From positions 89,636 through 129,635 of the forward strand of contig CAVSMQ010000005.1 of assembly GCA_963729055.1 (NCBI GenBank): a stretch of 40,000 nt of DNA. The letters run 5' to 3'. Below the pieces are notes generated by a model. That model had not been told where the DNA came from and did not search any database. It worked only from the letters and a program-made list of their open reading frames with translations. Positions 10,201 to 38,703 of the stretch are shown piece after piece; position 1 is the stretch's first letter; each line of letters starts with the position of its first letter. Source of the stretch: an uncultured Actinomycetes bacterium. Its GTDB lineage: Bacteria > Actinomycetota > Thermoleophilia > Solirubrobacterales > 70-9. Both the position numbers and the translations under genes were made by a program.

Positions 10201-10517
10201 AGAGCCTCTGGGAAATCGACCCCGAAACGGGAGCCGAATACTGGCGCGTCTACCTCTCAGTGGCACGCAAAGAACGCGAATACGGCTGGGCCTCCCAAGC
10301 GATGCTGAAACCCCTCTTCGGCAAGGTCGAATTCGAACCCGGCGAAGAAAACTCACCCAACCTGGAAGCCGACCCAGGCCACTTTATGCGCCAAGGCATT
10401 GCGATCAAGGAATACAAGAACACCTGGAAGTGCGAAATGGTCCCGCCGGATGAAGCGTTCCCCCCCGGCGTGGGGACGCCGAAGTATTCGCTCGAACCTG
10501 TAACGCCAGCGCCCTGA
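7215..10517 (+). CDS. large secreted hypothetical protein (1100 aa) with an Ig/PKD-like segment and a C-terminal coiled-coil region
   Basis: Signal-like N-terminus 'FQAAVFAALLAGAIILAAPGTAAG'. 'TPTFRPDVRGHYKVKLTIESGSG' is PKD-like. The opposite-strand 666-aa ORF is a low-complexity shadow. Confidence 0.8.
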   Translation: MVRVLASRGLVRSFQAAVFAALLAGAIILAAPGTAAGAKPAGKGKQGAGDAKGSARLIVSPRPGQRIRGDRVRIVVRAGAEPEDLKARLNGERIGGRFGANPRRHRRQLDATPIDGLRRGGNTLTIRVHDLRHGGYRRASVRFFVAHHRPLASAGRDIRVVAGSRLELHGMLKLDRSDSGARGVQWQVVGAPRRSALSNKPAANAAARAAERSALGERRTLTPTFRPDVRGHYKVKLTIESGSGKSVDWANIYAVPTSPLINLRTEVPASAQQPQPGVFVGGEVIPAPFMREARPPYAREANPTGTYAGKAGNVTYVAMAQVVAFERTTLAFKWNRTYGICTVPGDYYPCRNGPKGEPIDADPTKELAELGPSTLVVAASHPSGATPGLAWGSPADFGFFSAFLGGIGMPTPETSPTSAAELAAAKPGEMSGVGVPGLDPGDAKYILGGGQTGMVGYLTPDSHTPKFFFFIPRQREPFDTRAATSCNANGCTVAQKVGANEVTATVAAGKGGFLVSGFDRRTLAPIEHALFTTAGGQPESGENSTGEFGPREMSRKVEALAKQGALVVVTSVHGQSPGVLFTPGASKTPWNALIAAIVSIGGTREGLNTAATSAGGDYSLVGWSGLGEGAGDEQSVAGARLRGVLVPGDQSVFEPQAVLSGASMDEPELLIQTLLREPSQAWWGDGNREAEAAIVAIGAQSSLLGYDPRPAYWTQLTTPLVASTALEQVKGAKFPAALGEPKFTEAVFNKAKEELAHEVEGVKKVRTYMEELATPARHSGTIAWEEATKLSAELEERIKALKEQGEVSAEWLAIIEGVLEGVSTLLELKPIKSFMDLTHYVALAAVAAELGQTIWNANYQGTSKEPSIQVEALRLGSELQAQAEANINTFHRMGDIIVSDPTKLAEIKWGGCNPTDDGCPAKFEELGFNEELEKFADLTMKRAFQREIYERLLPLAYPILDLGLTKRKETIFPANAAPCTDFSEPLKGAPALSYHKSLWEIDPETGAEYWRVYLSVARKEREYGWASQAMLKPLFGKVEFEPGEENSPNLEADPGHFMRQGIAIKEYKNTWKCEMVPPDEAFPPGVGTPKYSLEPVTPAP

Positions 10518-14858: not shown

Positions 14859-15764
14859 ATGCCATTTCTCCTGCTCCTGATCATTTCCCTCGCCGCGGGG
14901 CTCGGAGCCGCCTCGCTGACGCGGCTCTACCGGCGACGCACCGACACCTCCCCCGTCCTCGAGGCGGCACGCGAGGCCGGCCGGCACGCCACCGGCCCGG
15001 TTGCGCGTCGCACGGTGCGGGCCGCGCGCCTCGACCCGGAGAGGGCAACCGGCCTGGCGCTCACGCTGGCGGTCGCCGCAATCCTCCTCGGCGGCGCGGT
15101 GCTCGCCTCATTGACGGTCCTGGTGCGCAGCACCGACGCCCTTGCCGGCATCGACACCAGCGTGGCCGAGTGGGGAAACCGACACGCATCCGCCTGGTCC
15201 CACGACGCGATCACCGTGGTGACGAATCTGGGCGCGACCTGGACCGTGATCGCCGTCGCCCTCGCAGTAGCAGCGGTCGAGATCGCCCGCACGCGCAGTC
15301 ACTGGATGGTGCCGTTCCTCCTCACGGTCATGCTCGGAGACAAGCTCCTCACCGAGGCGATCAAGCAGCTCGTCGATCGCGCCCGGCCGGAGCTCGAGCC
15401 CGTGGCCGCGACGCTCGGCCCATCGTTCCCCAGCGGTCACACCGCCACCGCTGCCGCCTCATGGGCCGCCTTCGCCCTCGTCGCCGGACGTTGGTGGGGG
15501 CCGCGAGCCTGGCCGGCGCTTGCCGGCACCGCCGTCGGCATCGCGGTTGGAGTCGGGGTCAGCCGAGTCTTGCTCGACGTTCACTGGCTAACCGATGTCC
15601 TCGCGGGCCTCGCACTCGGCTGGGCCTGGTTCGCCGCCTGCGCGATCGCCTTCGGCGGCCGCGTCCTCCGATTCGGTGCGACGGCGCAGGCCGCGGGACG
15701 TGGCGGGGTCGAGGCCCCGGCGAGCCAGCTTCGGACCAGGACCCGGCCGCGACGCCGTGTGTAG
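14859..15764 (+). CDS. PAP2-superfamily phosphatase (membrane)
   Basis: 'KQLVDRARP', 'FPSGHTATA', 'SRVLLDVHWLTDVLAG'. Start set at MPFLLLL rather than the upstream R-rich extension. Confidence 0.8.
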   Translation: MPFLLLLIISLAAGLGAASLTRLYRRRTDTSPVLEAAREAGRHATGPVARRTVRAARLDPERATGLALTLAVAAILLGGAVLASLTVLVRSTDALAGIDTSVAEWGNRHASAWSHDAITVVTNLGATWTVIAVALAVAAVEIARTRSHWMVPFLLTVMLGDKLLTEAIKQLVDRARPELEPVAATLGPSFPSGHTATAAASWAAFALVAGRWWGPRAWPALAGTAVGIAVGVGVSRVLLDVHWLTDVLAGLALGWAWFAACAIAFGGRVLRFGATAQAAGRGGVEAPASQLRTRTRPRRRV

Positions 15765-15767
15765 GCC

Positions 15768-16130
15768 CTAGGGCCGCCCGATCGCGCAGACTGCGGGGAC
15801 CGGGCGCAGGTTCTCGACCAGGACCCTGTCGACGGTGAATCCCCCTCGCGGAGCCGGTCGGCCAGCGTGTTCCCGAGGTCCCGCGCTCGCTCGGGCGCGG
15901 AGTGGCGCGCGTCCCAGAAGAGATAGAAGACACCGTCCCGGGCGAGGTGCTCGCGGACGGCACCGAGCGCCGCCTCCGGCTGCAGCCAGAAGGGAGCGAC
16001 GTTGAAGACGAAGACCTTGGCGAAGCGCCGGTCGCCGAGGTCCGCGTCCTCCAGCGCGGTGGCCTCGAGCACAGCGCTGCCCGCGTCGACGTGCCCGAAG
16101 TGCGGCGGATTGAAAGGCCGCCCATGTTCT
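15768..16130 (-). pseudogene. 5'-truncated, frameshifted class I methyltransferase remnant
   Basis: 'AVLEATALEDADLGDRRFAKVFVFNVAPFWLQPEAALGAVREHLARDGVFYLFWD', then after a shift in the C5 run at 15841-15845, 'GGFTVDRVLVENLRPVPAVCAIGRP*'. The GxGxG N-terminal third is missing and its place is taken by the 3' end of the nuclease gene. Confidence 0.5.
16109..16120 (+). repeat. copy Z of the repeat core (ATTGAAAGGCCG) at the left edge of the Dpd-like island
   Basis: The same 11-12-mer as at 29087-29098 and 32551-32561, and one mismatch from 30217-30228, in the same orientation. It lies at the junction between the truncated methyltransferase and the nuclease gene stop. Confidence 0.4.
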
Positions 16131-16137
16131 GACCGGC

Positions 16138-17184
16138 TCAGGTCCTGTCGACGCGGAGCGCGTTCGTCTCGCGGTCCAGCCTGCCCGGCGACTCTCTCTT
16201 CAAGTAGGCCTTGTACTCGTCGCAGTCGAAGCGCTGAGCGCACGCGGTGCACTGTTTTTTCAACTCGCTGGTAATCCGCTCGCCGACCGGCTTGTCCATC
16301 TCGAGTAGCGAGCCACCGTGGATGGCGACCGGGCCCTTGGCGAACTCAATCGTCGTCGCCCGCAGCAACTCGACCTGACCCACCGTCCACTCCAACGCCT
16401 TCTCGACGATCTCGTCGTCGATCGGGATGGCGAGCAGCCGGTTCTCCTCCTCGCGCTCGTTGACGAAGAAGAGGACACACCGCTCCGGCAGCTCGCCGGT
16501 CCGCTCGCGGTAAAGCGCGGCGTAGGTGGCGACCTGACGCACGTAGTCAATCTGGAACTCCGACGAGGCCCTGGTCGCCTTGAAGTCCCAGATCTCCTGG
16601 TCGCCGGGCGTGGCCTTGATCTCCTCGTGCTCGACGTGCCCAAGCAACTCGTCGCGGTGGTCCCACTTCCACAACCGGTGGTAGGTGAGCGAGTCGGGCT
16701 GCTGGAGGACCAGATCGATGATCCCGGTGAGAAGGATCTTCTTCTTTCCGGCGAAGTCTTTGGGTATTACCTTGCGCACCGATTTGAGCTGGTACTCGGT
16801 GTGCTGGGCGCCGCGGATCACGGTCTCGACCGGCCTCTGCAACTTGGACGAGTCGCTCTTCGTCTTGTAGAGGTTCCGGAGGATCCGGTCGAGGACCTCT
16901 TCCCGGGTGCTGAAGGCGGTGACGATCCCCCGCGAGCGCAGGACCCGGTAGTAATGGTCGAGCTGTTCCGCCAGTTCGATCCGCCTAGCGAGGACGCCGT
17001 CGTCGGCGTAGCGGCGCGCAAGCCACTCCATCGCGTGGTGCAGCAGGCGCCCCTCCATTGCCTGCACCTGCTCGTAGGGGACGAAGCCCACGTGGTTCTC
17101 GTATGCCCAGGCGCGGGGGCAGCGCCGGTGGGCCAGCAGGTCGCCCGTGTAGGAGACTTCGATGACCTCGTTCACGCCGACCAC
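16138..17184 (-). CDS. PD-(D/E)xK nuclease, Cas4/AddB-like with a 4-Cys (Fe-S) signature
   Basis: N-terminal 'RRCPRAW' plus C-terminal 'CTACAQRFDC' give the C...CxxCxxxxxC pattern. 'GIIDLV', 'EIWDFKATR', 'QVATYAALY' (D...(D/E)xK...QxxxY). Its start overlaps the helicase stop by 13 nt. Confidence 0.8.
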   Translation of the reverse strand: MVGVNEVIEVSYTGDLLAHRRCPRAWAYENHVGFVPYEQVQAMEGRLLHHAMEWLARRYADDGVLARRIELAEQLDHYYRVLRSRGIVTAFSTREEVLDRILRNLYKTKSDSSKLQRPVETVIRGAQHTEYQLKSVRKVIPKDFAGKKKILLTGIIDLVLQQPDSLTYHRLWKWDHRDELLGHVEHEEIKATPGDQEIWDFKATRASSEFQIDYVRQVATYAALYRERTGELPERCVLFFVNEREEENRLLAIPIDDEIVEKALEWTVGQVELLRATTIEFAKGPVAIHGGSLLEMDKPVGERITSELKKQCTACAQRFDCDEYKAYLKRESPGRLDRETNALRVDRT

Positions 17185-19622
17185 CTGCGGATCAAGGCCC
17201 TGCCGGACCGTTTCGGTTTCTTGTCCGCGAACAGGGATTCGATCCCCGCGTTCAGCTTCATCATCGGCCGCTCGTCGTCGGGAGCATGGATGACGGTGAG
17301 GTGCTGCTTAGCGCGGGTGATCGCGACGTAGACCTCGCGCTCGCGGTCCGCGGTCGCACTGCGCAGCACCGTTTTGTCTTTGGTCGTGGGATGTTCGTCG
17401 ACGACTTTGTAGGTCGGTGATTCGCCGCTGAAGAGCATCGTCGCCAGCACCGAGCTGGGGTCGACCTCCTTGCCGGTCATTGCGACGTAGACGTGGTCGA
17501 ACTCGAGCCCCTTGGCCTGGTGGTAGGTGAGCAATGAGATCGCGTCCTCGCTGAAGGCCTCGACCTCGAGGTCGTCTAGGCTGCCCGCCTCCACTAACTG
17601 CCCAAAGGCGCCGAGCATCGACCAGTATTGGTCCGGCCAGACGATCTTGCCGTCGTCCCTGCGGCGCGGGACCATCGGGTTCTCAAGCGATTTTTTGCCC
17701 CTGGTCCGGGTGACAGCAATGTTGGCGTCGAGCAGTTGGGCGAAGAGGGCCTGGCGGAAGAGCTCGACGCTGTAGCCGCTTTCACGGAAGGGCGGCATCG
17801 AGAGCAGCCGGGCCACCAGCCCGCCGAGCGACAATTTCAGGCTGCCCTCGGGGCGCGAGACGAGATCATCGCGCATCTGGTCGAGCGTTGTGAGCAGCGG
17901 CCCGAAAGTCGGCCCCGGTACCCCAATGCCGCCGCCGTCCCTTTTGATCGTCCGTTTCTGGATACCGGCGTGGTCGTTGCTGACCCGGAAACGCGGTCGG
18001 GCGCTGACCGCGAAGGCCGCCTTCTCGGTGTCGTGGTTCGTAGCCCAGACGCCGACGTCGCGGCGTTTGCCGGTACTCGGGTTCGCTTTCCCAGCCGGCG
18101 CCATGGTCACCGGGTCGATCAGGTATGAGATCAGACCGAGCAGGTCGTGAACCGGGCTACCGACCGCTGCCGCCGCCTTGTTGCGCGGGTTGAAGACGCG
18201 CAGCCCTCGCGCTGCGAGGGCATTACGTAGGTCGAGGGCAGCGCTATTGCCTTTCTTCGTGCTCGCCTCCTTGGTCGACGCCATCAGGATCGCGACAGAG
18301 GGCGCTGCCTCCTCACCGATCTCGGAGATCCGCCCCGCCCCCAGCGCGTCGATCTCGGCCGCGACGTGCTCGCAGACGGGGATCCACTTGCCTTCGACCA
18401 GACGGACCGGCGCGCCAGCGTCCCTGCTGGGTGGGGCGACCACGGTCTTGTCGAGCGAGTCGCTGGCGAGGACGGTCGCCTCGCGGAAGGCGCGGGCGAA
18501 GTCGACGATCGTGGCGCTACTGCGGTTGTTCACCTCGAGCAGCTCACGGCGGTACGGCAGGCCCGCCTCCGCGCAGTCGGGCTCGAGGTTGTCGAAGCAG
18601 GCGATGTCGGAACCGCGCCACCGGTAGAGAGCCTGGTCGTCGTCGCCGACCGCGGTCAGCTTCACCCCCTGGGACCTCGGCCAGGCGAGGTGGATCGCGT
18701 ACTGAATCGGGTTGGTGTCCTGGAACTCGTCGACGAAGACGTGCTCGAGGCTGCCGTCGAGAGTGTGCTGGCGCTCGAGGAACCTTTGAAGGAGGAGGGC
18801 GAAGTCCATGGTGAAGTTCTCCTCCAACTGCTGTGCCCACTTCTCCTGGATCGTGGTCAGCTTCTCGGTCAGTCCCGACGCGCCCGTCGCGGTCTCGATG
18901 CCGTTCGGTGTGCCGCTCTCGCTGCAGCGAGGGAGCCAGGTCTCGATGTGCTGGTTGATCACCGCCAGCGAGAGGTCGACGCGGTCCAGCCCACCCATGT
19001 AGTTGCTCCACGGCGGCCTGAACAGCGAGATCAGCTGGGGGAGATCGAAGATATCGTCGAGCAGGTTGCTGCCGTTCTCGCGGAACGCGTAAGCCCTGCA
19101 CTGGAGGAAGCGAAGGCGAGTCTCGACCTCGTCGATCACCTCCTTGCCTTCCTCGAGGTGCTCCACGTCGAACTCGGTGAGCAGTTCGTCGCAGAGCGAG
19201 TGGATGGTGCCGATCCGCAGGTCGTGGACCCGTGGGTCGTCGACCGCGATCCCCTTTGCCAAGGCTGCGTCGAGCAGATCGTCGGTGCGCTCGACCATCC
19301 GCACCGAGAGCTCCTGAGCCGCTTTCCTGGTGAAAGTCGTGACCATCACCCGCGTCGGGTCGACGACGCCGACGAGCAACTCGTAGAGGACCCGCCAGAC
19401 GAGCACCTCGGTCTTGCCGGCTCCGGGGCCGGCAACGATCTGGAGGACAAGGTCGTCGTCCTCGACCTTGACGATCTCCTTGTGGGAAGCCTCGAGCGGC
19501 GGGCGCCCCGAGGCACCGAGCGCGTGGTCGGCTAGCTCGAAGAAGACCTCAGGCGCCAACTCCTCGCGGACTTTGGGCGCGAGAGTTCGTACCTGGGACT
19601 GCGGGCCTGCGCCCTCAGCCAT
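17172..19622 (-). CDS. UvrD/Rep-family superfamily 1 helicase
   Basis: 'VAGPGAGKTEVL' (I), 'TTFTRKAAQEL' (Ia), 'VFVDEFQDTNPIQ' (II), 'VGDDDQALYRWRGSD' (III), 'LEVNNRSSATIV' (IV), 'LLTYHQAKGLEFDHVYV' (V), 'VYVAITRAKQHL' (VI). Confidence 0.9.
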   Translation of the reverse strand: MAEGAGPQSQVRTLAPKVREELAPEVFFELADHALGASGRPPLEASHKEIVKVEDDDLVLQIVAGPGAGKTEVLVWRVLYELLVGVVDPTRVMVTTFTRKAAQELSVRMVERTDDLLDAALAKGIAVDDPRVHDLRIGTIHSLCDELLTEFDVEHLEEGKEVIDEVETRLRFLQCRAYAFRENGSNLLDDIFDLPQLISLFRPPWSNYMGGLDRVDLSLAVINQHIETWLPRCSESGTPNGIETATGASGLTEKLTTIQEKWAQQLEENFTMDFALLLQRFLERQHTLDGSLEHVFVDEFQDTNPIQYAIHLAWPRSQGVKLTAVGDDDQALYRWRGSDIACFDNLEPDCAEAGLPYRRELLEVNNRSSATIVDFARAFREATVLASDSLDKTVVAPPSRDAGAPVRLVEGKWIPVCEHVAAEIDALGAGRISEIGEEAAPSVAILMASTKEASTKKGNSAALDLRNALAARGLRVFNPRNKAAAAVGSPVHDLLGLISYLIDPVTMAPAGKANPSTGKRRDVGVWATNHDTEKAAFAVSARPRFRVSNDHAGIQKRTIKRDGGGIGVPGPTFGPLLTTLDQMRDDLVSRPEGSLKLSLGGLVARLLSMPPFRESGYSVELFRQALFAQLLDANIAVTRTRGKKSLENPMVPRRRDDGKIVWPDQYWSMLGAFGQLVEAGSLDDLEVEAFSEDAISLLTYHQAKGLEFDHVYVAMTGKEVDPSSVLATMLFSGESPTYKVVDEHPTTKDKTVLRSATADREREVYVAITRAKQHLTVIHAPDDERPMMKLNAGIESLFADKKPKRSGRALIRRWSA

Positions 19623-19745
19623 CGCTCATCCGCCCCTGCGGCCTGCCCATGTCTCGATCCTTGCAAACTGGCCGGTCCGAAATTAGGAACTCGACCGGTG
19701 AGGTAGGCCTGCCCGATCGAGTCCTGTGACAGCCTGTCGGCGCTA

Positions 19746-20888
19746 CTAAGCGGCCTGCGCGACGCGCTTCCGCCCCCGGGAAGCCTTGTAGAGGGCGAGG
19801 ATGTGGTCCGTCAGCTTCTGGGTTTCGGTCGGGGTGTTCTGCAGCTCGTTCCAGCCCGTGGCGCCGCGGAGGCCGAAGCCCCACTCTCCCCCGGTCCAAG
19901 CACAGGAGTCGGCGATCCTTAAGAGCTCCGCCTTGAATTTGGCCTGCGAGGGGATCTCCTCTTCGCCGAGGCGGAACGCGATCTCGTCCATCAGCGCCCC
20001 CATGCTGGCGATGCCGACGCCATGCACCAGGCGGGAAGTGTGCGCAGTGCCGGCCCAGGCCTCGGGGAACGATTCCTCGACCGCGCCCCAATAGGCCTTC
20101 AGCAACTGCAGCATCGCCTCGGTGTTACCGCTGCCCTGGACCGAGTCGAAGTGGTCGTAGAGGGCGCCGTCCTCGAGGCTCGCCGCCAGCATGTTGAGGA
20201 CGGAGTTGTCCTTGATCACGCCATCGGGGCTGGTCGGGGTTTTGATTCGACGCTGCAGTGGCGAGTCGTCGTCGAAGTTGAGGCGCGCGAGGAGGAGGGC
20301 CGGGTAGCGCCGGCGCAGGAGGGCAACCGGCAGGTCCTCTGCCGGCGTCTCCGGGAGCAGCTCGTGGATTAGCCCCTTGGGCAGCGGCTTGGTCGAGTTG
20401 ACGAGGATGAACTGGGAGCGTTGCTCGTCGACCCGCTCGGCGACGAAGGCGGTGACGAAAACCGGGAAGCCCTCGAGGTCCGCCTCGCGTAGCGCCGCTG
20501 AGCGCTGCTGGCCGTCTACGATCCAACCGGCCTTCTCCTCGTCGGCCTGTTCCTCTTCGACCGGGATCACGATCTCGCCAACCCGCGCTTCCGGCCCCTT
20601 TCGGCGGCGTCGCTTGTCGGCAGGTTTGAATCGAACCCGTTTGTCGAAGGCGACGACGAGCGCGTTCGGGAGGATCGCGTGTGAGGTCTCGAGGTAGCGC
20701 TTGATCGCGCCTATGTGCGCCTGCGCCTCCGAGCGCTGGTAGCCGCCGAGCAAATGTGCGTCGTCACGGTGAATCCGCGAGACGGTGGTAAACGACGACA
20801 GCAGCTTGCCGTCGACCGCGAAGGTGTAGAGCGCGCGCCCACCCTGTTTCATTTCGAGGGCCGCCAACCTGATCTCCGACTTCGCCAC
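19746..20888 (-). CDS. dpdB: DGQHR-domain (DndB/ParB-like) protein, DpdB-type
   Basis: 'GGYQRSEAQAHIGAIKRYL', 'WIVDGQQRSAAL', 'QFILVNSTKPL'. It begins 9 nt after the dpdA-like stop. Confidence 0.8.
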   Translation of the reverse strand: MAKSEIRLAALEMKQGGRALYTFAVDGKLLSSFTTVSRIHRDDAHLLGGYQRSEAQAHIGAIKRYLETSHAILPNALVVAFDKRVRFKPADKRRRRKGPEARVGEIVIPVEEEQADEEKAGWIVDGQQRSAALREADLEGFPVFVTAFVAERVDEQRSQFILVNSTKPLPKGLIHELLPETPAEDLPVALLRRRYPALLLARLNFDDDSPLQRRIKTPTSPDGVIKDNSVLNMLAASLEDGALYDHFDSVQGSGNTEAMLQLLKAYWGAVEESFPEAWAGTAHTSRLVHGVGIASMGALMDEIAFRLGEEEIPSQAKFKAELLRIADSCAWTGGEWGFGLRGATGWNELQNTPTETQKLTDHILALYKASRGRKRVAQAA

Positions 20889-20897
20889 GCCTCGCCC

Positions 20898-22145
20898 CTA
20901 CCCGCCAGCGACCAAGGCCGGCCGCACTCCCGGGATCGCCAGCTCGAGCCGCTGCGCGAAGGCGTGCAAGTTGTGAAAACCACGGCGCTTGTTCCGCTCG
21001 GTGCCCCGAAAGAGGATCACCTCGACGCCTACTTGCAAACACACCTGGCATCCACACTCCTGCCAGGGCGCAGCGGCGAGCGTTTCCCGGTAGTCCTCGC
21101 GCCGATCTTTGCGCGGGTCGTGCAGCTCTTGGTACATACACAATGCGTCGAGCGCCTCCTCCAGCCCCACTGCGCCGCGATCGAAGTCGCGAACCGCGGC
21201 AAGTGCGTCGCGCTCCAGCCGCTGGGCTTCAGTCTGGTCGACTTGACCCGAGCGGACCTTTCTCTGCAGACGGGCGTTGCCGTCGACCTGGGGCACCCGC
21301 AGCGCGACGAAGGCACGCTCGGGGGTCCAGTAGTTGTCGCGCTCGTCTTTGAACGCCTGCCGGAACGGTGAGGTGCTGTCGAAGCTCGAAATCCCGAATT
21401 CGCGGAAACGGGGGATCGCCTTGCACCGCGTGATTCCGAACAGGTGGATCTCAGCGGTGGGGTCACGCACCGCGTCGATCGCCTCGAGCACGGCGAGGAT
21501 CTCTGGAGTCTTCAGCGGCACCAACCCGCCGATCGCCAGCCGCCTATAGCCCATCTCCTGAAGCTCCTTCACCGCCCGCGTGTAGGAGGTGTCGCTCCAA
21601 CCCTGGGCGACGCCGACTGGCTCGAAGCTGCAGCCCGAGTCGCGGTGAAGGGCAAGGAACTCGGCCGCGAGCCGCAGCGTCAACTCGTAGCGTCCGGTCC
21701 AACGCTCATCGACCTCCGCTTCGGGGTCGGCCTCGTAGATCGGGATCACGTGATCGACCGAGACGCCGGCGTCGAACCCGCACTGCTCGTAGAACTCGAT
21801 CACCTCCTCGCTCGAGTACGGCGGCTCGTCCTCTTCGAGATAAGTGAATGCGCCGCAGTCACCAAGCGTCTCGATCCGCCGCCCGCCGGTCTCGTCGAGG
21901 CGGAAAAAGTCACGCACCCCGCCGCGGTAGAAACGGCGGCGTTGCTGGGCGCTATAGCGACCGGTACCGCCGTGGTGGTCGATCATCGTCTTCGAGACGA
22001 GCATCCCGTCGTACGGACAGGGGTCGAGCACCTCGTGGGCGTAGAGATCGTCGCGCTGCCGTATCCGGGTCGGCGAGCGAACCTCCCGGTGAAACTCGAA
22101 GCTCGGGTCGACCTGGTCCTGGCTGTCGGGGAAGAAGAACTTCAT
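20898..22145 (-). CDS. dpdA: DNA-type guanine transglycosylase-like protein (TGT fold), DpdA/TgtA5-type
   Basis: 'LGDCGAFTY', 'GVSVDHVIP', 'VGVAQGW', 'LAIGGLVP', 'IHLFGITR', 'SSFDSTSP', Zn motif 'CGCQVC...HNLH'. Start set at MKFFFPDSQ. The 200-aa R-rich upstream extension in the ORF track is rejected. Confidence 0.85.
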   Translation of the reverse strand: MKFFFPDSQDQVDPSFEFHREVRSPTRIRQRDDLYAHEVLDPCPYDGMLVSKTMIDHHGGTGRYSAQQRRRFYRGGVRDFFRLDETGGRRIETLGDCGAFTYLEEDEPPYSSEEVIEFYEQCGFDAGVSVDHVIPIYEADPEAEVDERWTGRYELTLRLAAEFLALHRDSGCSFEPVGVAQGWSDTSYTRAVKELQEMGYRRLAIGGLVPLKTPEILAVLEAIDAVRDPTAEIHLFGITRCKAIPRFREFGISSFDSTSPFRQAFKDERDNYWTPERAFVALRVPQVDGNARLQRKVRSGQVDQTEAQRLERDALAAVRDFDRGAVGLEEALDALCMYQELHDPRKDRREDYRETLAAAPWQECGCQVCLQVGVEVILFRGTERNKRRGFHNLHAFAQRLELAIPGVRPALVAGG

Positions 22146-22801
22146 GCCGCGACGAGATCCGCCCCGGAGCGAACTGGTTCGAGCATCGCGAGGACGTCCA
22201 CGTCGGGGTCCGCGAGGCGGTCCACCACTTCCGGCTCGCGCGCGATCAGCCCGAGTAGCCGGCCCGCGAGCTCGCCCTTGAGGCCGACGACGCCGCATGA
22301 GAACCGCCGCGTCTCCTCCCTGCCGGCAGGAACGACCCGCAGTGACAAATGCTCTCGCCGCCGAATCAGCCAGCGGCCGCCGAACGCGATCGTCGGGCCG
22401 CCGAGCACCGTCGCCGGGCCGATCCCCGCCGCCCTCATGTAGGCCTCGCCGAGCAGCAAGAGGGTCAGCGCGTGGTCGCGACGCAGAAGGCGCTGCAGCG
22501 ATGCTCGCACCCGCAACTGCTCGGCAATCGCATCGATCGCGGGCCCTCCCAGGCCGGCAAACGAGGCGTCGTATGCCGCCACCCGCCGCGACGCCGCCAG
22601 CACCCCGTGCCGGGCCGAGAGGATTCGCAGGTCGAGGTCGAAGTCCGAGGACTCTTCGCGGAAGGCGCATACCCCGCGCATCAGCCGCTTGTGCTGCTCG
22701 CCGATATATAGGCGCTCCGCAGCGAGGGAACCCGACGAGGCGGCCGGGTCCTTCTTGGCGGTGCAAGAGGTGAGAACGAGGATCGTCCGCGAGCTATCCA
22801 T
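22142..22801 (-). CDS. 219-aa protein of unknown function in the position of dpdC
   Basis: Starts 'MDSSRTILVLTSCTAKK'. ATGA overlap with dpdA and an 8-nt overlap with the folE2 stop. No family assigned with confidence. Confidence 0.6.
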   Translation of the reverse strand: MDSSRTILVLTSCTAKKDPAASSGSLAAERLYIGEQHKRLMRGVCAFREESSDFDLDLRILSARHGVLAASRRVAAYDASFAGLGGPAIDAIAEQLRVRASLQRLLRRDHALTLLLLGEAYMRAAGIGPATVLGGPTIAFGGRWLIRRREHLSLRVVPAGREETRRFSCGVVGLKGELAGRLLGLIAREPEVVDRLADPDVDVLAMLEPVRSGADLVAA

Positions 22802-23601
22802 CGGGCCGCTCCCAGCGCAGGCGCGCGACCGCCTCGTGGGCGTGGATGCTCTCCTGGTTCGAGACCGCGACCGAGATGCCCATAACGCGCTGGTCGACAC
22901 GCAGCGCGACCAGGACCTCGCGCGCGAGGTCCTCGACGAAGGCCGGGTTGTCGTAGGCCTGCATCGTCACCACCCGCTCGTCGGTGCGCTTCAGCAGGGC
23001 CAGGATCGGGGCCGAGCCCGCCTCCTCCGCGACCTCAATCAGGTCCTCGAACCAGAGATCGGCACCGCGGGCCCGAATCTCGATGTAGGCCTCGTTGGTT
23101 GTGGGCGCCGTAGTCGCTGATCTCCTTGCTGCAGGGACAGAGGCTGGTGACCGGGACGCGGACCCCGACCTCGAGCCCGAAGGGGGCGCCAGCGATCGCC
23201 GTCCCCACCAGCCGGCAGTCGTAGCGATTCATCGACGCGGCCCCGCTTGCGGGGGCCTCGCGGCGGAGGAAGTAGGGGAAGCTCAGCTCAACCAGGGCAC
23301 GCTCAGATTCGAGGCGCTCGCGGACCTCCTCGGTCAGGCGGGCGAAGCCGCCCGGCGAGACCTCCCCCGCGCGCTGGTCAAGCGCTTCGACGAAGCGACT
23401 CATGTGCACTCCGCGTTGCTCCGGTGCGAGCGCGACGGTCATCGCCGCCTCGGCGACGGTGCGCTGGACGCAGCCGTCGCGCCCGACCACCTCGACCGGG
23501 TAGGAGAGACCGCCGATCCCGACCTCGTCAATCGGGACCCCGCGCGCGTCGGGACCACTCTGCACGTCCGGGATCGGAAGCGCGACCTCCTGCACACTCA
23601 C
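22794..23601 (-). pseudogene. folE2: GTP cyclohydrolase IB (FolE2/MptA type) with one apparent 1-nt frameshift near 23089-23094
   Basis: 'PDVQ', 'GVHMSRF', 'TSLCPCSKEISDYGAHNQR', then in the next frame 'AYIEIRARGADLWFEDLIEVAEEAGSAPILALLKRTDE...NQESIHAHEAVARL'. Length 808 nt (3n+1). GTGA overlap with queD. May be a sequencing error. Confidence 0.75.
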
Positions 23602-24035
23602 CCGGCCCGACCTCCGCGGTAAGAGCAACCGGAGGTACAGGTCTCGCGGACGAGAACCTCCTTCAAGCCGGGAAGCGTCGGGTCGAGCCGGTCCCAGATC
23701 CACTTCGCCAGGTTCTCGCTCGTCGGGTTCTCGAGCCCGGGCACGTCGTTCAGGTAATAGTGGTCGAGTTCGGCGTGGAGCGGCTTGAACGCGGCGCTCA
23801 GCTCGGCGAAATCGACGACCCAACCGGTCGATTCACCCACCTCCCCACCGACCCGGATCTCAACCCGGTACGAGTGTCCATGGAGCCGGGCGCACTTGTG
23901 ACCCTCAGGCACGTTCGGCAGCAGGTGGGCCGCCTCGAAAGTGAACTCCTTGAAGATCTCGGCCTTGGTGACTCGCTGCTTCGCCCCGGCCTCCTGCCCG
24001 TTGCCCCTGGCATCGATGATCGCCACCTCGCTCAT
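23598..24035 (-). CDS. queD: 6-carboxy-5,6,7,8-tetrahydropterin synthase
   Basis: '[10 protein letters not shown]', '[13 protein letters not shown]', 'LDHYYLND', 'ENLAKWIW'. ATGA overlap with queE. Confidence 0.9.
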
Positions 24036-24784
24036 ACGCCGCGTTCCTCTCCCCAAGCGATCACGTGCAACTGCGGCAGGACTCTGGCGCGCGCCAAATC
24101 CGGGTCGGCCGCGACTCTCTCGCAGAGCTGGCGGAAACTCGCTCCCACCGCCGCGGGCAGATCAGCCGGCGCCGGGACGGGGGTCCCTGCCGAGAGGTGC
24201 AGATCGGGCTGCGGCCAGCGGCCAGCGACCGCCTTTGCCCATGCGAGGTCCTCGGCGTCGAAGCAGACGATCTTCAACACCGTCCGTTCCCATGCCGTGG
24301 TTTCGGCAGCACGGTGCATGAACTTGTCGAATTGGGCCTCGTGCGCCTCCCCGGCCATCCTCGAGGAGGGCGGCTTCGGCGAGACCGTCAGTCGGTCAAC
24401 GCGACAGAGCCACTCCTTCCACAGCGAGCCCTGCGTCTCGACCGCGACCGCGAGCCCGTCGGCGTGGAGTTGGTCGACCAGCGCGTCCAGTTCGTGCAGG
24501 GCTGGGTTGCCGCCGCTGATCACCACCCACTGCGCGCCGCCGCCGAGCGCCGCCACCCGCGCGGCGATCTGCCCCGCGTCGAGGTGCTCGGCTTCTCGGC
24601 GAACCTCGGCGGGGTCGACTGCGTACATCGTGTCGCACCACGAGCAACGGTAGTCACAGCCGCCGAAACGGATGAAGTAACACGAGCGGCCCGCCTCGGC
24701 ACCCTCACCCTGAATGGTAGGACCGAAGATCTCGACCACGGGGAACGTCTTCGTGGCCCGAGCTTTTTCAGCGACAGTGGCCAC
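24032..24784 (-). CDS. queE: 7-carboxy-7-deazaguanine synthase (radical SAM)
   Basis: '[36 protein letters not shown]', 'VVISGGNP'. Confidence 0.9.
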
Positions 24785-24790
24785 GATTTC

Positions 24791-25498
24791 TCAGGCTCCC
24801 GCTTGCGCTTGGTAGGGAGCGGGGTCGACGAGGCCATTCTCGGCGAATCCCTTCAGGCGCAAATGGCAGGAGTCACATTCACCACACGCCTCGCCCTCCG
24901 GCGTCGGGTCGTAGCAGCTGCGGGTCAACCCGTAGTCGACCCCCAGCGCGATGCCCTTGGTGATGATCTCGGCCTTGGTCAGGTCGATCAGCGGCGTGTG
25001 GATCGTGAGGCGCTTCCCTTCTACACCGCGTTTCGTCGCCAGGTTGGCCATCGCCTCGTAGGCGGCCACATACTCAGGGCGGCAGTCGGGGTAGCCGCTG
25101 TAATCGAGCGAGTTGACACCGATGAAGATGTGGTCGGCCTCGAGCACCTCGGCCCAGGCAAGGGCGAAGGAGAGGAAGACCGTGTTCCTGGCGGGAACGT
25201 AGGTGACCGGAATTCCCTCCGACATCTGGTCGATGTCACGCGCCTTCGGCACCTCGATGTCGTCGGTCAGAGCCGATCCGCCGATCCGGCGGAGGTCGAT
25301 CTCGATCTCGACATGATTGGTGACGCCGGCCGCGGCGATCACCCGCTTCGCCGCCTCGAGCTCGACACCGTGGCGCTGGCCATACCGGAACGTCATCGCG
25401 CCGGCCTCGAATCCTTCCTCAGCCGCGATCGCCAAAGCCGTCGCGGAGTCGAGCCCGCCGCTGACCAGGACCACCGCCTTCTGCGAACCGGCCGTCAC
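24791..25498 (-). CDS. queC: 7-cyano-7-deazaguanine (preQ0) synthase
   Basis: '[13 protein letters not shown]', 'YGQRH', '[12 protein letters not shown]', 'SCYD...[10 protein letters not shown]'. Confidence 0.95.
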
Positions 25499-25734
25499 GT
25501 CGCCTCCGCCTCGGCTTGTGGGACTGCCTCCGGCGTTGACCGACGACTGGCCTCGATGAACTGGCGAACCTCGTTGGGCTCGAACAGGGTGCGGCCCCCG
25601 ACCTTGACTCCGACCAGGTCGCCGGCCCGGCAGAGGCGATAGATGCCGCTCTCGGAGATCCCGAGGTACTCGGCCACCTTCTTTACCGAGAGGAGCGGCT
25701 CCAGGTCGTTCAGGGAGCTTTCAATTGCTGTCAT
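25495..25734 (-). CDS. excisionase-family (MerR-like) helix-turn-helix DNA-binding protein, first gene of the operon
   Basis: '[48 protein letters not shown]'. 4-nt overlap with the queC start. Confidence 0.8.
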
Positions 25735-25765
25735 CGGCGCCCAAGCTAGGCCGCCGATCGGACGC

Positions 25766-25796
25766 GAGGCAGGGCCGACGCTGAGGCAGGGCCGAC
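25766..25796. promoter_or_regulatory. two perfect 14-bp direct repeats (GAGGCAGGGCCGAC, 17-bp period) upstream of the HTH-queC operon; candidate operator
   Basis: Copies at 25766-25779 and 25783-25796, 32-62 bp upstream of the 25734 start, in the divergent intergenic region. Confidence 0.35.
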
Positions 25797-25957
25797 CCTG
25801 CGGCCAGACGAGGATGAAAGAACTTCCCTGCTAACGGGGATAACCAGGCGCCGGAGCCAGGTAGGCGCTACTGCGCTGGAAGGAGCCAGACCCGCTGCTC
25901 GGCGCCCCGACTACGAAACCATTCGACGGTAACAGCGACGGCGTTTAGGTTGGCGCG

Positions 25958-26452
25958 ATGACAGGCAAGCTGAAGCTCGGCAATAGAGGGATCTCTGATC
26001 TCCTCGGCATCTATGTCCAAGTACTCGAGGAGCTCCGCGAGCGCGAAGTGATCCGTAGCGCCAACGCACCCACCGGCGACTACGCGGAGTGGTTGGTACA
26101 GCGGGCGCTCGGCGGCGACTTGCAGCCGAATTCCAACAAGAGCGCCGACCTGATCGTCCGCATGGAGAGGATTGAGATCAAGTCCAGGGTTCTCAGCGAT
26201 CCCGAGAAGTCAGGTGAGCGGCAGCTTTCACCATTTCGCTCCTGGAATTTCGACTGCGCCGTCATCGTCCTCTTTGATCGTCGTTACGACGTCCGGCGGG
26301 CAACCCGGATCAAGGTCTCGGAGCTTAAAGCGGCATCCCGGGAAGACGAATGGGTTTCCGGGAAACGGGTGATCGCACGTGAGGCACTGCTCGATCGCGG
26401 CCTCGATATCACCAAGAAGGTGCGGGAGGCGGCCGCACGGCAAGACGACTGA
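25958..26452 (+). CDS. small PD-(D/E)xK-like (restriction-endonuclease-fold) protein, function unknown
   Basis: 'GDYAEWLVQRALGG...KSADLIVRMERIEIKSR' gives a D...ExK arrangement. Divergent from the Dpd-like operon. Confidence 0.55.
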   Translation: MTGKLKLGNRGISDLLGIYVQVLEELREREVIRSANAPTGDYAEWLVQRALGGDLQPNSNKSADLIVRMERIEIKSRVLSDPEKSGERQLSPFRSWNFDCAVIVLFDRRYDVRRATRIKVSELKAASREDEWVSGKRVIAREALLDRGLDITKKVREAAARQDD

Positions 26453-26531
26453 ACCGAGGCGAGGGAAGAAGCCAGCCTTCGCCTAGCGGGACTAGGCAGG
26501 GGGCGTCGGGGTCGAGCGCTACTTTCGGAGA

Positions 26532-37218: not shown

Positions 37219-38313
37219 CTAGGCGATGAGTCGGCGGATGGCCCCGAAATCACGCCCGGTCGAATGCGTGTAATGAGCGAGCATCGTGGCTAAGCCGTGA
37301 CCAACGACCTTCGACAAGTCAGCATCGTCCACAAGTTTGGTCGCTCTTAGATTGGTGACGTAGCTGTGCCGGCACTCGTGAGGCCGAATGTCTAGGCTCA
37401 GCCGCATCCTGCGTCGGCTTCCAGACGTCGCGATAGAAGGTGCGCTCGCGCCAAAGGCGGCCCCGAGGCGTCGGAAAGAGCAGGTTGCAGTCGGGGCCGT
37501 TGAGGTTGATCTGGGCTTCGAGCATCCAGGCGAGGGTCGCGGGGACAGGGACCACGCGGCCGGCGTCTCCTCGCCGTGGTCGGTCTTGGTGCCCTCGAGG
37601 ATCTGGCCCTCGTGGGCGGTGCGGCGGACTTGGAGGGTCTCGCCGTCGAAGTCTTCGCGGCCGGAGGGGGAGGACCTCGCCTAGGCGCATGCCGGTGTCG
37701 GTGAAGGTGCGGACAAGCGCCTCGTAGCGGCCGGCCGCCTTGGCGAAGCGGTGCATTTCCTCGAAGCTGAAGACGCGGATCGGGCGGCGCTTCTTCGTGG
37801 CCCGCGGGTCGTTGGCGCGGATGCGGACGCCCTTGAAGGGGTTGAGGTCGCAGACTTCGTCGGTGATCGCGTCCTCGGCCATTGCCGAGAGGGCGCGGAG
37901 GATGCCGACGGCGCCGGTGGTGGCTCGACCTTCGGTCCTCAGCATGTGGTCGACCAGGGCGAGGGCGTGGCGGCGGCGCAGTTCGCGAAGGGGCCAGTCC
38001 TTCAAGGGGATGCCCTCGACCTCGACGTCGGCGACGCGGCTGATGCGGTGCTCGTTGGTGGCGTTGGTCCGCTCGGAGCGAGGGTGGCGGTCGGTCCAGG
38101 TGGCGAAGTAGTCGCCGAGGGTGTCGGGCCGATCGGAGAGGCCGTAGGCCTCGTCGATCGCCCGCTGGGCTTCGCCTTGCGGGCGAAGGTGCCTTTGCCG
38201 CGGTTCCAGGTCGGTTTGGCGATGCGGCGTTTTCCGTCGCGGCCGGTGTAGCGGGCAAGCCACACGACCTTGCCCGACGGGTTGCGGCGTTTGGTGGGCG
38301 ACTCGCGTCTCAT
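37219..38313 (-). pseudogene. tyrosine recombinase/integrase with at least four frameshifts
   Basis: 'MRRESPTKRRNPSGKVVWLARYTGRDGKRRIAKPTWNRGKGTFARK' | 'GEAQRAIDEAYG...TDTGMRLGEVLPLR' | 'REDFDGETLQVRRTAHEGQILEGTKTDHGEETP' | 'GRVVPVPATLAWMLEAQ...FYRDVWKPTQDAA' | 'LDIRPHECRHSYVTNL...VVGHG...LAHYTH'. Shifts near 38175, 37655, 37560 and 37400. Confidence 0.8.
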
Positions 38314-38504
38314 GCCGTCTCGTCCCTGTGTCGGGCGAGGAAGTCCTCGACATCGTCGGGGTCGATCCGGCGAGAGGCGCCGAGCTTGTAGCTGGGCAGC
38401 TCGCCGCGCCTGATCCAATTGCGGATGGTCCGATCCGAGACGGCGAGATAGGCGGCGAGGGTGCGCTCGGTGAAGAAGCTCGCGGAGGCGCGTTTCCGTT
38501 GCAT
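38310..38504 (-). CDS. excisionase-family HTH protein (Xis-like)
   Basis: 'FFTERTLAAYLAVSDRTIRNWIRRGELPSYKLGASRRIDPDDVEDFL'. ATGA overlap with the integrase start. AAGGGG RBS before the ATG at 38504. Confidence 0.8.
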   Translation of the reverse strand: MQRKRASASFFTERTLAAYLAVSDRTIRNWIRRGELPSYKLGASRRIDPDDVEDFLARHRDETA

Positions 38505-38703
38505 GCCCCTTATGTCCCGCGAGCGGGCCAATTGCACCGGGTGGGAACAGAATTATTCGCGAGCGCATTGACCTTCGGCCGCAATTCGCCGGGCGACCGT
38601 ACGAGCCGACCGCGCGGCGAAGCCGCGCCAAAATCGGCGAGCGGTCGCCCGGCGACGGAGCGCCTTCGAGGCTTTCTTGAATTGAGCATCAAGAAAGTGC
38701 GGC

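Follow-up and report, generated by a model that had tools for sequence, protein, structure and literature searches.

A coupled SF1 helicase and Cas4-type nuclease as a candidate restriction arm of a compact Dpd-type 7-deazaguanine island

We examined a 40,000-nucleotide stretch of DNA (hereafter the window) from an uncultured Actinomycetes bacterium and identified an integrase-bearing island of roughly 22 kb, at which all features described here lie on the (-) strand. The island reads queC-queE-queD-folE2-dpdC-like-dpdA-dpdB-helicase-nuclease, with the helicase-nuclease pair as its terminal cassette. The preQ0 synthesis genes (22797..25498) were recognised by Pfam matches to GCHY-1 and PTPS and by homology to the related locus L017. 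Of these, queC (24791-25498) and queE (24032-24784) were named from the L017 homology together with cluster analysis, and are followed by queD (23601-24035) and folE2 (22797-23601), the latter being split between two frames in tblastn with the L017 orthologues. The dpdC-like gene (22142..22840) is 79% identical to its L017 orthologue; it matched Pfam DUF6884 with 28.8 bits (cut-off 30) and PADLOC DpdC with an E-value of 7e-5 over part of the model. Next to it, dpdA (20898..22136) encodes a TGT-like DNA 7-deazaguanine transglycosylase (552 bits against NCBIfam NF041059, cut-off 200; PADLOC score 565), and dpdB (19746..20888) encodes a DGQHR/ParB-like ATPase (452 bits against the NCBIfam equivalog NF041060, cut-off 300; 454 bits in PADLOC). 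Judging from these profile scores, the DpdA and DpdB of the window are bona fide.

At the far end of the island, a tyrosine integrase gene (37319-38353) and an HTH_17/Xis-like ORF taken from the ORF listing (38310-38537) together span 37319..38537. The integrase is apparently frameshifted, its tblastn match to the L017 integrase (76% identity, E = 3e-133) being split over frames. Since both folE2 and the integrase are frameshifted, decay of this particular copy or an imperfect assembly is possible. The window also carries two type IV restriction-like genes. DpdD and DpdJ had no tblastn match anywhere in the window, and no PADLOC match to dpdD-K was found in the helicase, the nuclease or the other window ORFs scanned, which were a subset of the ORFs. 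There was also no CRISPR-like array in the window and no cas gene among the ORFs scanned.

The helicase gene (17172..19622) encodes an SF1A UvrD-like protein of 816 aa, as indicated by Pfam, motif alignment and AF2 folds. Pfam detected UvrD-helicase (PF00580) with 140 bits, in addition to AAA_19 and UvrD_C. The preliminary description of this DNA had reported SF1 motifs I-VI to be intact, and all SF1 motifs were indeed invariant in a family alignment of 80 sequences, at Q61, G65/G67/G69-K70-T71 (motif I), T95-T98 (Ia), D298-E299-Q301-D302 (II), D327-D328-Q330-Y333-R334-R336-G337 (III), N365/R367 (IV), T699-H701-Q702-K704-G705-E707 (V) and Y765-V766-A767-R770 (VI). The AF2 model (pLDDT 92.6) had UvrD, PcrA, Rep, AdnB and AddA as its top folds, with a Foldseek E-value of 8e-27 to UvrD; with motifs Q, I, Ia and II-VI and the four-subdomain fold, the protein belongs to the SF1A superfamily. 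It is not an equivalog of UvrD, PcrA, Rep, RecB or AddA, as it scored 89-126 bits against NCBIfam cut-offs of 696-1144. In PADLOC, GajB (UvrD-like) models matched part of its length with E-values of about 1e-31.

The nuclease gene (16138..17175) encodes a predicted Cas4/AddB-type iron-sulfur PD-(D/E)XK protein of 345 aa, based on Pfam (PDDEXK_1, 50 bits, cut-off 22), conserved residues and AF2 folds. Across 121 homologues E41, H46/H47, D154, E194, D197-x-K199 and Q214...Y218 were invariant, as were cysteines C19, C309 and C318, with C312 at least 90% conserved; the cysteines are spaced as C...C-x2-C-x5-C. The D...(D/E)xK...QxxxY motif and the four-cysteine Cas4/AddB pattern, which had been noted before in the single sequence, are conserved among these homologues. 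The AF2 model (pLDDT 89.9) resembled Cas4-family ACE1, Dna2, Cas4 and the AdnA/AddA nuclease domains, and the top Foldseek matches were ACE1 (9iac), Dna2 (5eax) and Cas4 (8d3l), at TM-scores of only about 0.4-0.5. Like these three, the nuclease has a PD-(D/E)XK core with a C...CxxCxxxxxC cluster. It shares the motifs and the four cysteines of a CRISPR-associated Cas4 but is not one, since it scored 18.5 bits against the TIGR00372 cut-off of 65 and its neighbours are dpd and que genes; it is also longer (345 aa versus about 200 for Cas4).

The longest ORF of the nuclease starts at GTG 17184 and would give 348 aa. GTG 17175 is the more likely start, because its overlap with the helicase stop reads GTGA, AGGTGG precedes it by 5 nt and the homologue N-terminus MSDVIEVSYTGD agrees with it. 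The two genes do overlap, as was described before, but the 13 nt proposed at that time are counted from GTG 17184, and an overlap of 4 nt (GTGA) is likelier. In 7 of 7 related loci with called genes, helicase and nuclease overlap by 4-13 nt.

The helicase is separated from dpdB by 123 bp (19623-19745). This is the sole sizeable gap in the operon, as already claimed, with only 5 nt at the dpdC/dpdA junction and 9 nt at the dpdA/dpdB junction, while the que genes abut or overlap. We searched the gap for conserved elements and detected a 13-mer, TTTGYAARRATCG / TTTGCAAGGATCG (19655..19667), that occurs once per locus in L017-L020, always upstream of the helicase, where the rest of the spacer has diverged. 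It is a candidate extended -10 promoter (TGn + AAGGAT) or operator. The suggestion that the pair has its own promoter gains support from this sole conserved element of the gap, but a scan for the sigma-70 consensus gave no match. A candidate 11-codon uORF (19615..19650) can also be read from the sequence, the TGA stop of which overlaps the helicase ATG; it would be leaderless, because its ATG lies only 7 nt after the putative -10. L017 and L018, unlike L020, have equivalent uORFs of 11-12 codons that overlap the start of the helicase. Just past the dpdB stop, a hairpin of about 12 bp followed by UAAUUU (19687..19724) may be a weak terminator, though the gap as a whole reaches a z-score of only -1.8 and relatives do not conserve the hairpin.

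To place the pair in context, about 100 related loci were compared. Of the 60 loci having enough upstream DNA, 57 have the helicase directly upstream of the nuclease, as do all 14 genome loci, and the distances of the two proteins co-diverge (Mantel r = 0.94, n = 50). Neither ORF is a product of chance, since each protein falls into a tight family (E-values down to 1e-211). Beyond the family, the relatives nearest to the nuclease profile (E = 1e-20 to 1e-10) include single-chain UvrD + PDDEXK_1 proteins of 950-1160 aa (P0296, P0301, P0335, P0341 and P0342), with the helicase N-terminal and the nuclease C-terminal, in the same order as in the pair; unlike the pair they are fused, and they are far more divergent. 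No modified-base reader domain was obvious in the helicase or in the nuclease. PADLOC matched neither with a Dpd model, giving generic GajB/Cas4-type matches only, and the pair would be a family missing from this defence-system catalogue, which gave no family-specific model for either protein. No published description of the pair was found in the literature searched.

An exact peptide-pattern scan of 185,579 species genomes identified 15 loci, a lower bound since exact patterns are needed; no pair was found in 2.9 million viral contigs, and a plasmid search gave one distant match. We defined full-flank loci as those with 7 kb or more on each side and looked for dpd genes within 10 kb. Either dpdA, dpdB, dpdC, preQ0 genes or DpdD/DpdJ were near the pair in 18 of the 21 full-flank loci (13 of 16 having the helicase and 5 of 5 further long contigs), in shuffled gene order; of the 42 loci flanked by 8 kb or more, 31 had dpdA. 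The dpd genes are located upstream on the same strand, convergently downstream or past the que genes, and thus the linkage survives rearrangement (in Actinomycetota, Myxococcota, Planctomycetota, Pseudomonadota and others). The preliminary description had considered that orthologues might be routine housekeeping repair genes with no modification link; this is not what we found, because the pair is sporadic and the linkage holds in those 18 loci despite the rearranged order. Distances to DpdA correlate with r = 0.52 for the nuclease and r = 0.65 for the helicase, to which shared host phylogeny could contribute. No bona fide dpd gene lay within 10 kb in three full-flank loci, those of Mycobacterium asiaticum, Actinoallomurus oryzae and a Chromatiaceae MAG. 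In eight loci (L004, L014, L032, L038, L039, L059, L060 and L071) DpdD and/or DpdJ coexist with the pair, which is therefore an addition there and not always a replacement of the canonical arm. In the deepest-branching variant, NurA- and HerA-like genes, which form a further end-resection pair, are present as well.

In Salmonella Montevideo, DpdA/B/C modify DNA and DpdD-K, eight proteins without assigned roles, form the canonical restriction arm (PMC10164549); dpd islands without a restriction operon are already known (PMC12235509). Because the overlapping genes travel together across phyla, almost always beside DNA 7-deazaguanine genes, the pair is likely a "cutting arm". We consider it probable, from sequence and gene context, that it is a helicase-nuclease complex providing restriction (the R arm) in a compact Dpd-type 7-deazaguanine R-M island. 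We infer that the two proteins form a complex and cleave DNA in vivo, and that modification spares self DNA. FolE2, QueD, QueE and QueC of the island would make preQ0, which DpdA and DpdB would insert in place of guanine at target sites of the host DNA, and the DpdC-like protein may turn the preQ0 base into its amide form. After loading on DNA, the SF1A motor would move 3'->5' and feed the unwound strands to the Cas4-type nuclease, so that DNA without the mark would be degraded. Self DNA could be spared through recruitment or activation of the pair by DpdA (or DpdA and DpdB) bound at unmodified sites. Alternatively, the translocating enzyme may stall or be attenuated at modified bases in a Chi-like manner.

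Like the canonical Dpd system (dpdA-dpdK; PMC10164549), the island has a bona fide DpdA and DpdB, a DUF6884 DpdC-like gene, clustered preQ0 synthesis genes and a mobile setting, and some relatives of the pair adjoin DpdD and DpdJ. It differs in that no dpdD-K gene was detected among the ORFs scanned, and in its candidate effector, which pairs an SF1 UvrD-like helicase with a Cas4-type nuclease instead of the SNF2/DEAD helicases and PLD nuclease of the canonical arm.

The preliminary description had likened the pair to AddAB/AdnAB. This holds for the fold, since AddAB, AdnAB and RecBCD also combine an SF1A UvrD-like motor with a Cas4/AddB-type Fe-S PD-(D/E)XK nuclease, and the helicase matched AdnB (TM 0.57/0.61) and AddA, and the nuclease the AdnA/AddA nuclease domains. 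It fails for the architecture: AddAB/AdnAB consist of two helicase-nuclease subunits of roughly 1000 aa, whereas here there is one motor, on a helicase without a nuclease domain, and a 345-aa PDDEXK_1-only subunit, in a pair that is rare, resides on islands and is associated with dpd genes rather than recombination genes. The pair is therefore not AddAB/AdnAB. Type I and III R subunits (HsdR, Res) couple an ATP-driven translocase and a PD-(D/E)XK nuclease to a DNA-modifying, target-recognising module. By analogy, the pair appears to share this logic as well as the division of labour of RecB/AddA, but it has an SF1 rather than an SF2 motor, carried on a different polypeptide from the nuclease, and the partner is a transglycosylase instead of a methyltransferase. 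Gabija was also discarded, as there were only partial GajB matches, no GajA (OLD/TOPRIM ATPase-nuclease) was found among the PADLOC-scanned ORFs, and the partner of the helicase here is a Cas4-type nuclease.

It is possible, if unlikely, that the pair is an autonomous defence or anti-plasmid module of RecBCD/AddAB- or Gabija/Hachiman-like type, independent of modification, which merely shares islands with dpd genes and is at most incidentally protected by the mark. Full-flank loci that lack dpd genes are surrounded by other defence genes: N6_Mtase, HEPN_Swt1, ResIII and SRA_ScoMcrA in M. asiaticum, and a giant helicase together with DEAD, NACHT-like and RNase_T genes in the Chromatiaceae MAG; the type IV restriction-like genes of the window and the partial GajB matches would also fit such a module. 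However, dpd genes are rare (the GATOR-GC survey found them in about 2% of genomes, PMC12235509) and yet accompany the pair at most full-flank loci, often in an operon-like manner, where DpdA or DpdB immediately precedes it in the same orientation or where a DpdC-DpdA fusion abuts the helicase. Random co-residence in islands would not yield co-divergence or conserved adjacency across phyla. Moreover, the dpd-less loci nest inside dpd-linked clades of the nuclease tree, which suggests secondary separation.

The pair, or at least the helicase, could instead belong to the modification machinery, opening DNA at the expense of ATP for DpdA exchange and replacing or assisting DpdB, with the nuclease processing failed or abasic intermediates. 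DpdA depends on an ATPase, and the ATP hydrolysis of DpdB has been suggested to serve a helicase-like role (PMC10164549); in ten or more DpdB-less loci, the helicase is the only ATPase beside the DpdC-DpdA fusion. We regard this role as improbable, since DpdB is retained next to the helicase in the window and most loci, and pairs exist without a bona fide dpd gene nearby, while the fully conserved Cas4-type active site with its Fe-S cluster and the single-chain relatives point to degradation; the NurA- and HerA-like genes of the deepest-branching variant also speak against it. Least probable, and by our estimate very unlikely, is a housekeeping or element-borne function in recombination, repair or replication, either as an AddAB/AdnAB-like double-strand-break processor or as a helicase-exonuclease for the replication or recombination of the integrative element itself. 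The folds resembling AdnAB, AddAB and RecB and the terminal position in an integrase-bearing island would agree with it, but the sporadic occurrence, the absence from the viral contigs, the single distant plasmid match and the UvrD, PcrA, RecB and AddA equivalog scores (90-126 bits against cut-offs of 650-1144) would not, and the linkage tracks dpd genes rather than integrase, relaxase or recombination genes.

If the pair is the restriction arm, its two proteins, both from well-understood enzyme classes, would make a much more tractable model than DpdD-K and would account for some of the dpd islands described as "lacking a restriction operon" (PMC12235509). In the DpdB-less subtype, the DpdC-DpdA fusion is directly before the helicase. 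Perhaps, although we give the combined proposal only a small chance, DpdA (often as this fusion, without DpdB), the SF1 helicase and the Cas4-type nuclease form a separate minimal class, in which a single motor would power both base exchange on self DNA and degradation of unmarked DNA, with the 7-deazaguanine mark as a Chi-like stop signal. In loci of this minimal type, QueD, a HAD hydrolase and a transporter are sometimes the sole accompanying genes. The two-protein effector, which some loci carry in a four-gene DpdB-less operon, could show how the mark is read and self is discriminated from non-self.

The minus strand of the window carries, from about 25.5 to 16.1 kb, a tightly packed row of genes in which queC (24791-25498), queE (24032-24784), queD (23601-24035, Pfam PTPS), folE2 (22797-23601, Pfam GCHY-1, split over two reading frames), a dpdC-like gene (22142-22840, DUF6884), dpdA (20898-22136) and dpdB (19746-20888) are followed by genes for a UvrD-like helicase (17172-19622) and a Cas4-like nuclease (16138-17175). 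The modification half belongs to the Dpd family, with DpdA at 552 bits (NCBIfam cut-off 200) and DpdB at 452 bits (cut-off 300), both above the curated cut-offs. No DpdD, DpdJ, DndB-like or c22 homologue was found in the window by tblastn, and PADLOC scans of its larger ORFs gave no Dpd restriction component. With no dpdD-K gene found in these searches, the complete system falls outside the canonical Dpd definition.

The preliminary description had reported a helicase with all SF1 motifs intact and a nuclease with a D...(D/E)xK...QxxxY motif plus four cysteines, and both observations held. As an SF1A enzyme the helicase is complete (Pfam UvrD-helicase, AAA_19 and UvrD_C), and all its motifs are invariant in an 80-sequence family alignment. 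Its structure model (pLDDT 92.6) superposes on UvrD, PcrA, Rep, AdnB and AddA. It is a UvrD/Rep superfamily member; orthology to UvrD, PcrA, Rep, RecB or AddA was rejected, its NCBIfam equivalog scores (about 90-126 bits) falling short of the cut-offs (650-1144). The nuclease matches PDDEXK_1 (50 bits, cut-off 22). Among 121 homologues, E41, H46/H47, D154, E194, D197-x-K199, Q214...Y218, C19, C309 and C318 are invariant and C312 is conserved in at least 90%, and the cysteines match the Cas4/AddB C...C-x2-C-x5-C arrangement exactly. The nuclease model (pLDDT 89.9) finds the Cas4-family ACE1, Dna2, Cas4 and the AdnA/AddA nuclease domains, and a profile search of PDB sequences returned only spurious designed-repeat matches. 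Kinship to solved structures is detectable at the fold level only.

Related loci (designated L and a number) were gathered from species-representative genomes (15), metagenomes (80) and contigs reached through exact protein look-ups (7). A helicase orthologue lies immediately 5′ of the nuclease in all 14 complete genome loci and in 57 of the 60 loci having at least 2.6 kb upstream, and the two genes overlap by 4-13 nt in each of the seven relatives for which genes are called. The overlap in the window had been described as 13 nt; the overlap itself stands, but this length is a longest-ORF figure. The more likely nuclease start, judged from the sequence, is the GTG at 17175: it overlaps the helicase stop codon as GTGA, is preceded by AGGTGG at a distance of five bases, and fits the N-terminus of the homologues, MSDVIEVSYTGD. 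Pairwise distances of nuclease and helicase are strongly correlated (r = 0.94, n = 50; Mantel p ~5e-4). When 1.84 billion cluster representatives were searched exhaustively with a profile, the nuclease family proved small and tight: 33 of them reached E <= 1e-30, most being fragments of ~340-aa proteins; outside it, the same search found single chains of 950-1160 aa in which an N-terminal UvrD-helicase is fused to PDDEXK_1. Taken together, the gene overlap, the strict adjacency, the co-divergence and the existence of fused relatives make it sensible to infer that helicase and nuclease form a physical complex. A scan of viral contigs revealed no relative, and a plasmid scan gave a single distant match, a Halomicrobium helicase fusion.

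The main result is the linkage of the pair to dpd genes. Of the 42 loci whose retrieved flanking sequence reached 8 kb or more, 31 contain dpdA there. In seventeen loci the flanks reached 7 kb or more on each side. One such locus is a nuclease fragment that lacks a helicase; dpdA was present in 11 of the remaining 16, and L014 and L071 add DpdD and DpdJ adjoining the pair (PADLOC 761 and 1699 bits). Precomputed Pfam calls placed dpd genes on all five further long contigs, bringing the total to 18 of 21 full-flank loci (13/16 + 5/5). Dpd islands occur in only ~2% of genomes (37,198 windows, ~1.93 million genomes; PMC12235509). The dpd genes lie upstream on the same strand in the window, L017-L021 and L099, convergent downstream in L001, L011, L023, L029, L062, L064 and L080, downstream past que genes in L005, L038, L039, L041 and L100, and divergent upstream in L003, L004, L009, L044, L047, L052 and L053. 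The hosts include Actinomycetota, Myxococcota, Planctomycetota, Pseudomonadota, Acidobacteriota-like and other lineages. Linkage that outlasts such heavy rearrangement of gene order is the classic signature of a functional tie. Orthologues of the pair are not routinely housekeeping repair genes unlinked to modification, the outcome that the preliminary description had set against its own reading. Distances to DpdA are also correlated (nuclease r = 0.52; helicase r = 0.65), to which shared host phylogeny may contribute.

A DpdB-less class of loci (L006, L013, L030, L035, L049, L058, L061, L098 and L102) has a divergent DpdA of 570-700 aa, with an N-terminal DUF6884 (DpdC) fusion, directly 5′ of the helicase; its neighbours are QueD and a HAD hydrolase, joined in L102 by a transporter of the Vut_1/YhhQ type. 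In the deepest-branching L077, L078 and L087, genes for a NurA-like protein, a HerA-like ATPase and an uncharacterised 584-aa protein separate the DpdC-DpdA fusion from the helicase, and the six genes at 631-11062 of L087 encode the DpdC-DpdA fusion, the NurA-like, HerA-like (DUF87) and 584-aa proteins, the UvrD-like helicase and the Cas4-like nuclease. NurA-HerA is another nuclease-translocase resection pair. A ~500-aa DndB/DGQHR-like protein and a ~200-aa protein, the latter with no family match, stand directly 5′ of the helicase in L001, L014, L065-L067, L071, L097 and L101; in L014 and L071 they adjoin DpdD and DpdJ. This position is filled by an HNH + Ser/Thr-kinase protein in L011, L064 and L051. 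DpdD and/or DpdJ occur together with the pair in eight loci, so the pair sometimes adds to the canonical arm rather than replacing it. Two DpdB paralogues, ~37% and 50-60% identical to the DpdB of the window, flank dpdA in L004, L005, L009, L011, L029, L038, L039, L041, L047, L064, L066 and L067, where they stand in for the dpdC-like + dpdB arrangement.

The closest working analogies for the pair are the Type I/III R subunits, in which a helicase and a PD-(D/E)XK nuclease are coupled to a modifying and recognising module, and the RecB/AddA-type end processors. The resemblance to AddAB/AdnAB proposed earlier holds for the models, which match AdnB/AddA (helicase) and the AdnA/AddA nuclease domains, but not for the architecture, which the pair fails. 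Unlike Gabija, it has no GajA; the nuclease carries the Cas4/AddB signature yet fails the Cas4 model, and CRISPR context is absent in the window. The HerA/TGT "BRC" system was also rejected as an equivalent, since its components are PglZ, BrxC-like, STAND and DUF4007 proteins with no UvrD or Cas4-type pair (PMC12839542). The PADLOC (2023) matches were only generic ones of the GajB/Cas4 type, with no model specific to the family of either protein. Full-text literature searches for dpdA with UvrD or Cas4 returned only unrelated phage papers, and an earlier mention is possible. Surveys of dpd island diversity mention islands with no restriction operon and do not mention the helicase-nuclease pair (PMC12235509).

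We favour, with moderate confidence, the reading that the pair is the restriction (R) arm of a compact Dpd-type 7-deazaguanine restriction-modification island. The island would mark host DNA with 7-deazaguanine via DpdA/DpdB, while the SF1A 3′->5′ motor would unwind DNA and feed it to the Cas4-type nuclease. No domain evidently suited to reading modified bases is seen in either protein, and the means of discrimination must therefore lie elsewhere. Speculatively, DpdA(/DpdB) might sense unmodified target sites and license the pair, or the modified base might stall or attenuate the translocating enzyme.

It is unlikely that the pair is an autonomous defence module merely co-travelling with dpd genes. 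No bona fide dpd gene was found at three full-flank loci, those of M. asiaticum, Actinoallomurus oryzae and a Chromatiaceae MAG (which has only a 29%-identical DpdJ-like giant helicase); these loci sit among other defence genes, and in the nuclease tree they nest inside dpd-linked clades. Slightly less probable again is that the pair helps the modification reaction, which is most credible in the DpdB-less operons since DpdA needs an ATPase (PMC10164549); the window carries its own dpdB. To a role in repair or element maintenance we give very little credence, and a housekeeping AddAB/AdnAB role was rejected on its distribution, scores and context.

A 123-bp gap separates dpdB from the helicase, as had been stated together with the proposal that the pair has its own promoter. 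The spacer has diverged from those of relatives (genes 72-87% identical) except for TTTG(C/T)AA(G/A)(G/A)ATCG at 19667-19655, a 13-mer that occurs once per locus in L017-L020, always 5′ of the helicase, and is absent elsewhere in 97 loci. Read as TGn + AAGGAT, it is a candidate extended -10-like element. Seven bases past it, an ATG at 19650 begins an ORF of 11 codons that ends in a TGA overlapping the ATG of the helicase; the arrangement is the same in L017 and L018 and absent in L020. Such an upstream ORF, if leaderless and coupled in translation to the helicase, would be typical of Actinobacteria. No promoter emerged when 15800-26600 was scanned for the sigma-70 consensus, which is unsurprising at 65% G+C, and terminator-like matches there were no commoner than in shuffles. 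A hairpin 3′ of dpdB (~12 bp, weak U-tract) was rejected as a terminator (z = -1.8, non-significant; not conserved in relatives). On these grounds of conservation, the proposed separate control of the effector unit is plausible.

The closest relative of the island, L017, is 84% identical to the window over 9.6 kb of DNA, and the homology ends 3 nt past the nuclease stop codon; its integrase matches window 37319-38353. The pair is thus the last cassette of a ~22-kb island that bears an integrase. G+C rises from 0.64 to 0.73 at the edge beside the nuclease. No convincing att-type direct repeats were found flanking the island, and no tRNA gene in the window. Directly after the nuclease stop, a start-less ORF (~15581-16125, minus strand) resembles the C-terminal half of a class-I methyltransferase, a reading with no supporting family match; the island may have inserted into it, and neither a matching 5′ half nor an att repeat was found. 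The tyrosine integrase (37319-38537 region, minus strand) is 76% identical to that of L017, is spread over two or three frames and adjoins an HTH_17/Xis-like ORF (38310-38537, minus strand). In L017 the integrase abuts queC, and in the window ~11.8 kb of extra genes lie between them. A 17-bp tandem repeat, GACGCTGAGGCAGGGCC (2.6 copies, 25761-25804), upstream of queC, sits exactly where related-island homology starts (25765) and could be a regulatory or recombination site.

The enzyme encoded by folE2 (minus strand) opens the island's own route to preQ0. Residues 1-171 of the L017 orthologue map to 23601-23089 and residues 155-268 to 23138-22797, and the split reflects either decay by frameshift or a mistake in the assembly. 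The plus-strand gene at 26532-27569, a Q_salvage (DUF2419) homologue, is convergent with a gene for a 327-aa protein of no family match (27566-28549, minus strand). Both travel with the island family (L020, L021, L099), homologues of the 327-aa protein are also found in the DpdB-less L013, L035 and L045, and the two may form a 7-deazaguanine salvage or accessory module. Outside the island, an 1100-aa ORF (7215-10517, plus strand) has a signal-peptide-like N-terminus and no PADLOC match. The neighbourhood is rich in defence genes, and two modification-dependent (type IV) restriction-like genes lie at 30904-32505 and 4137-5432 (both plus strand), one a Mrr_cat protein with a PADLOC mREase_IV match of 362 bits and the other with a weak mREase_IV match of 47 bits.
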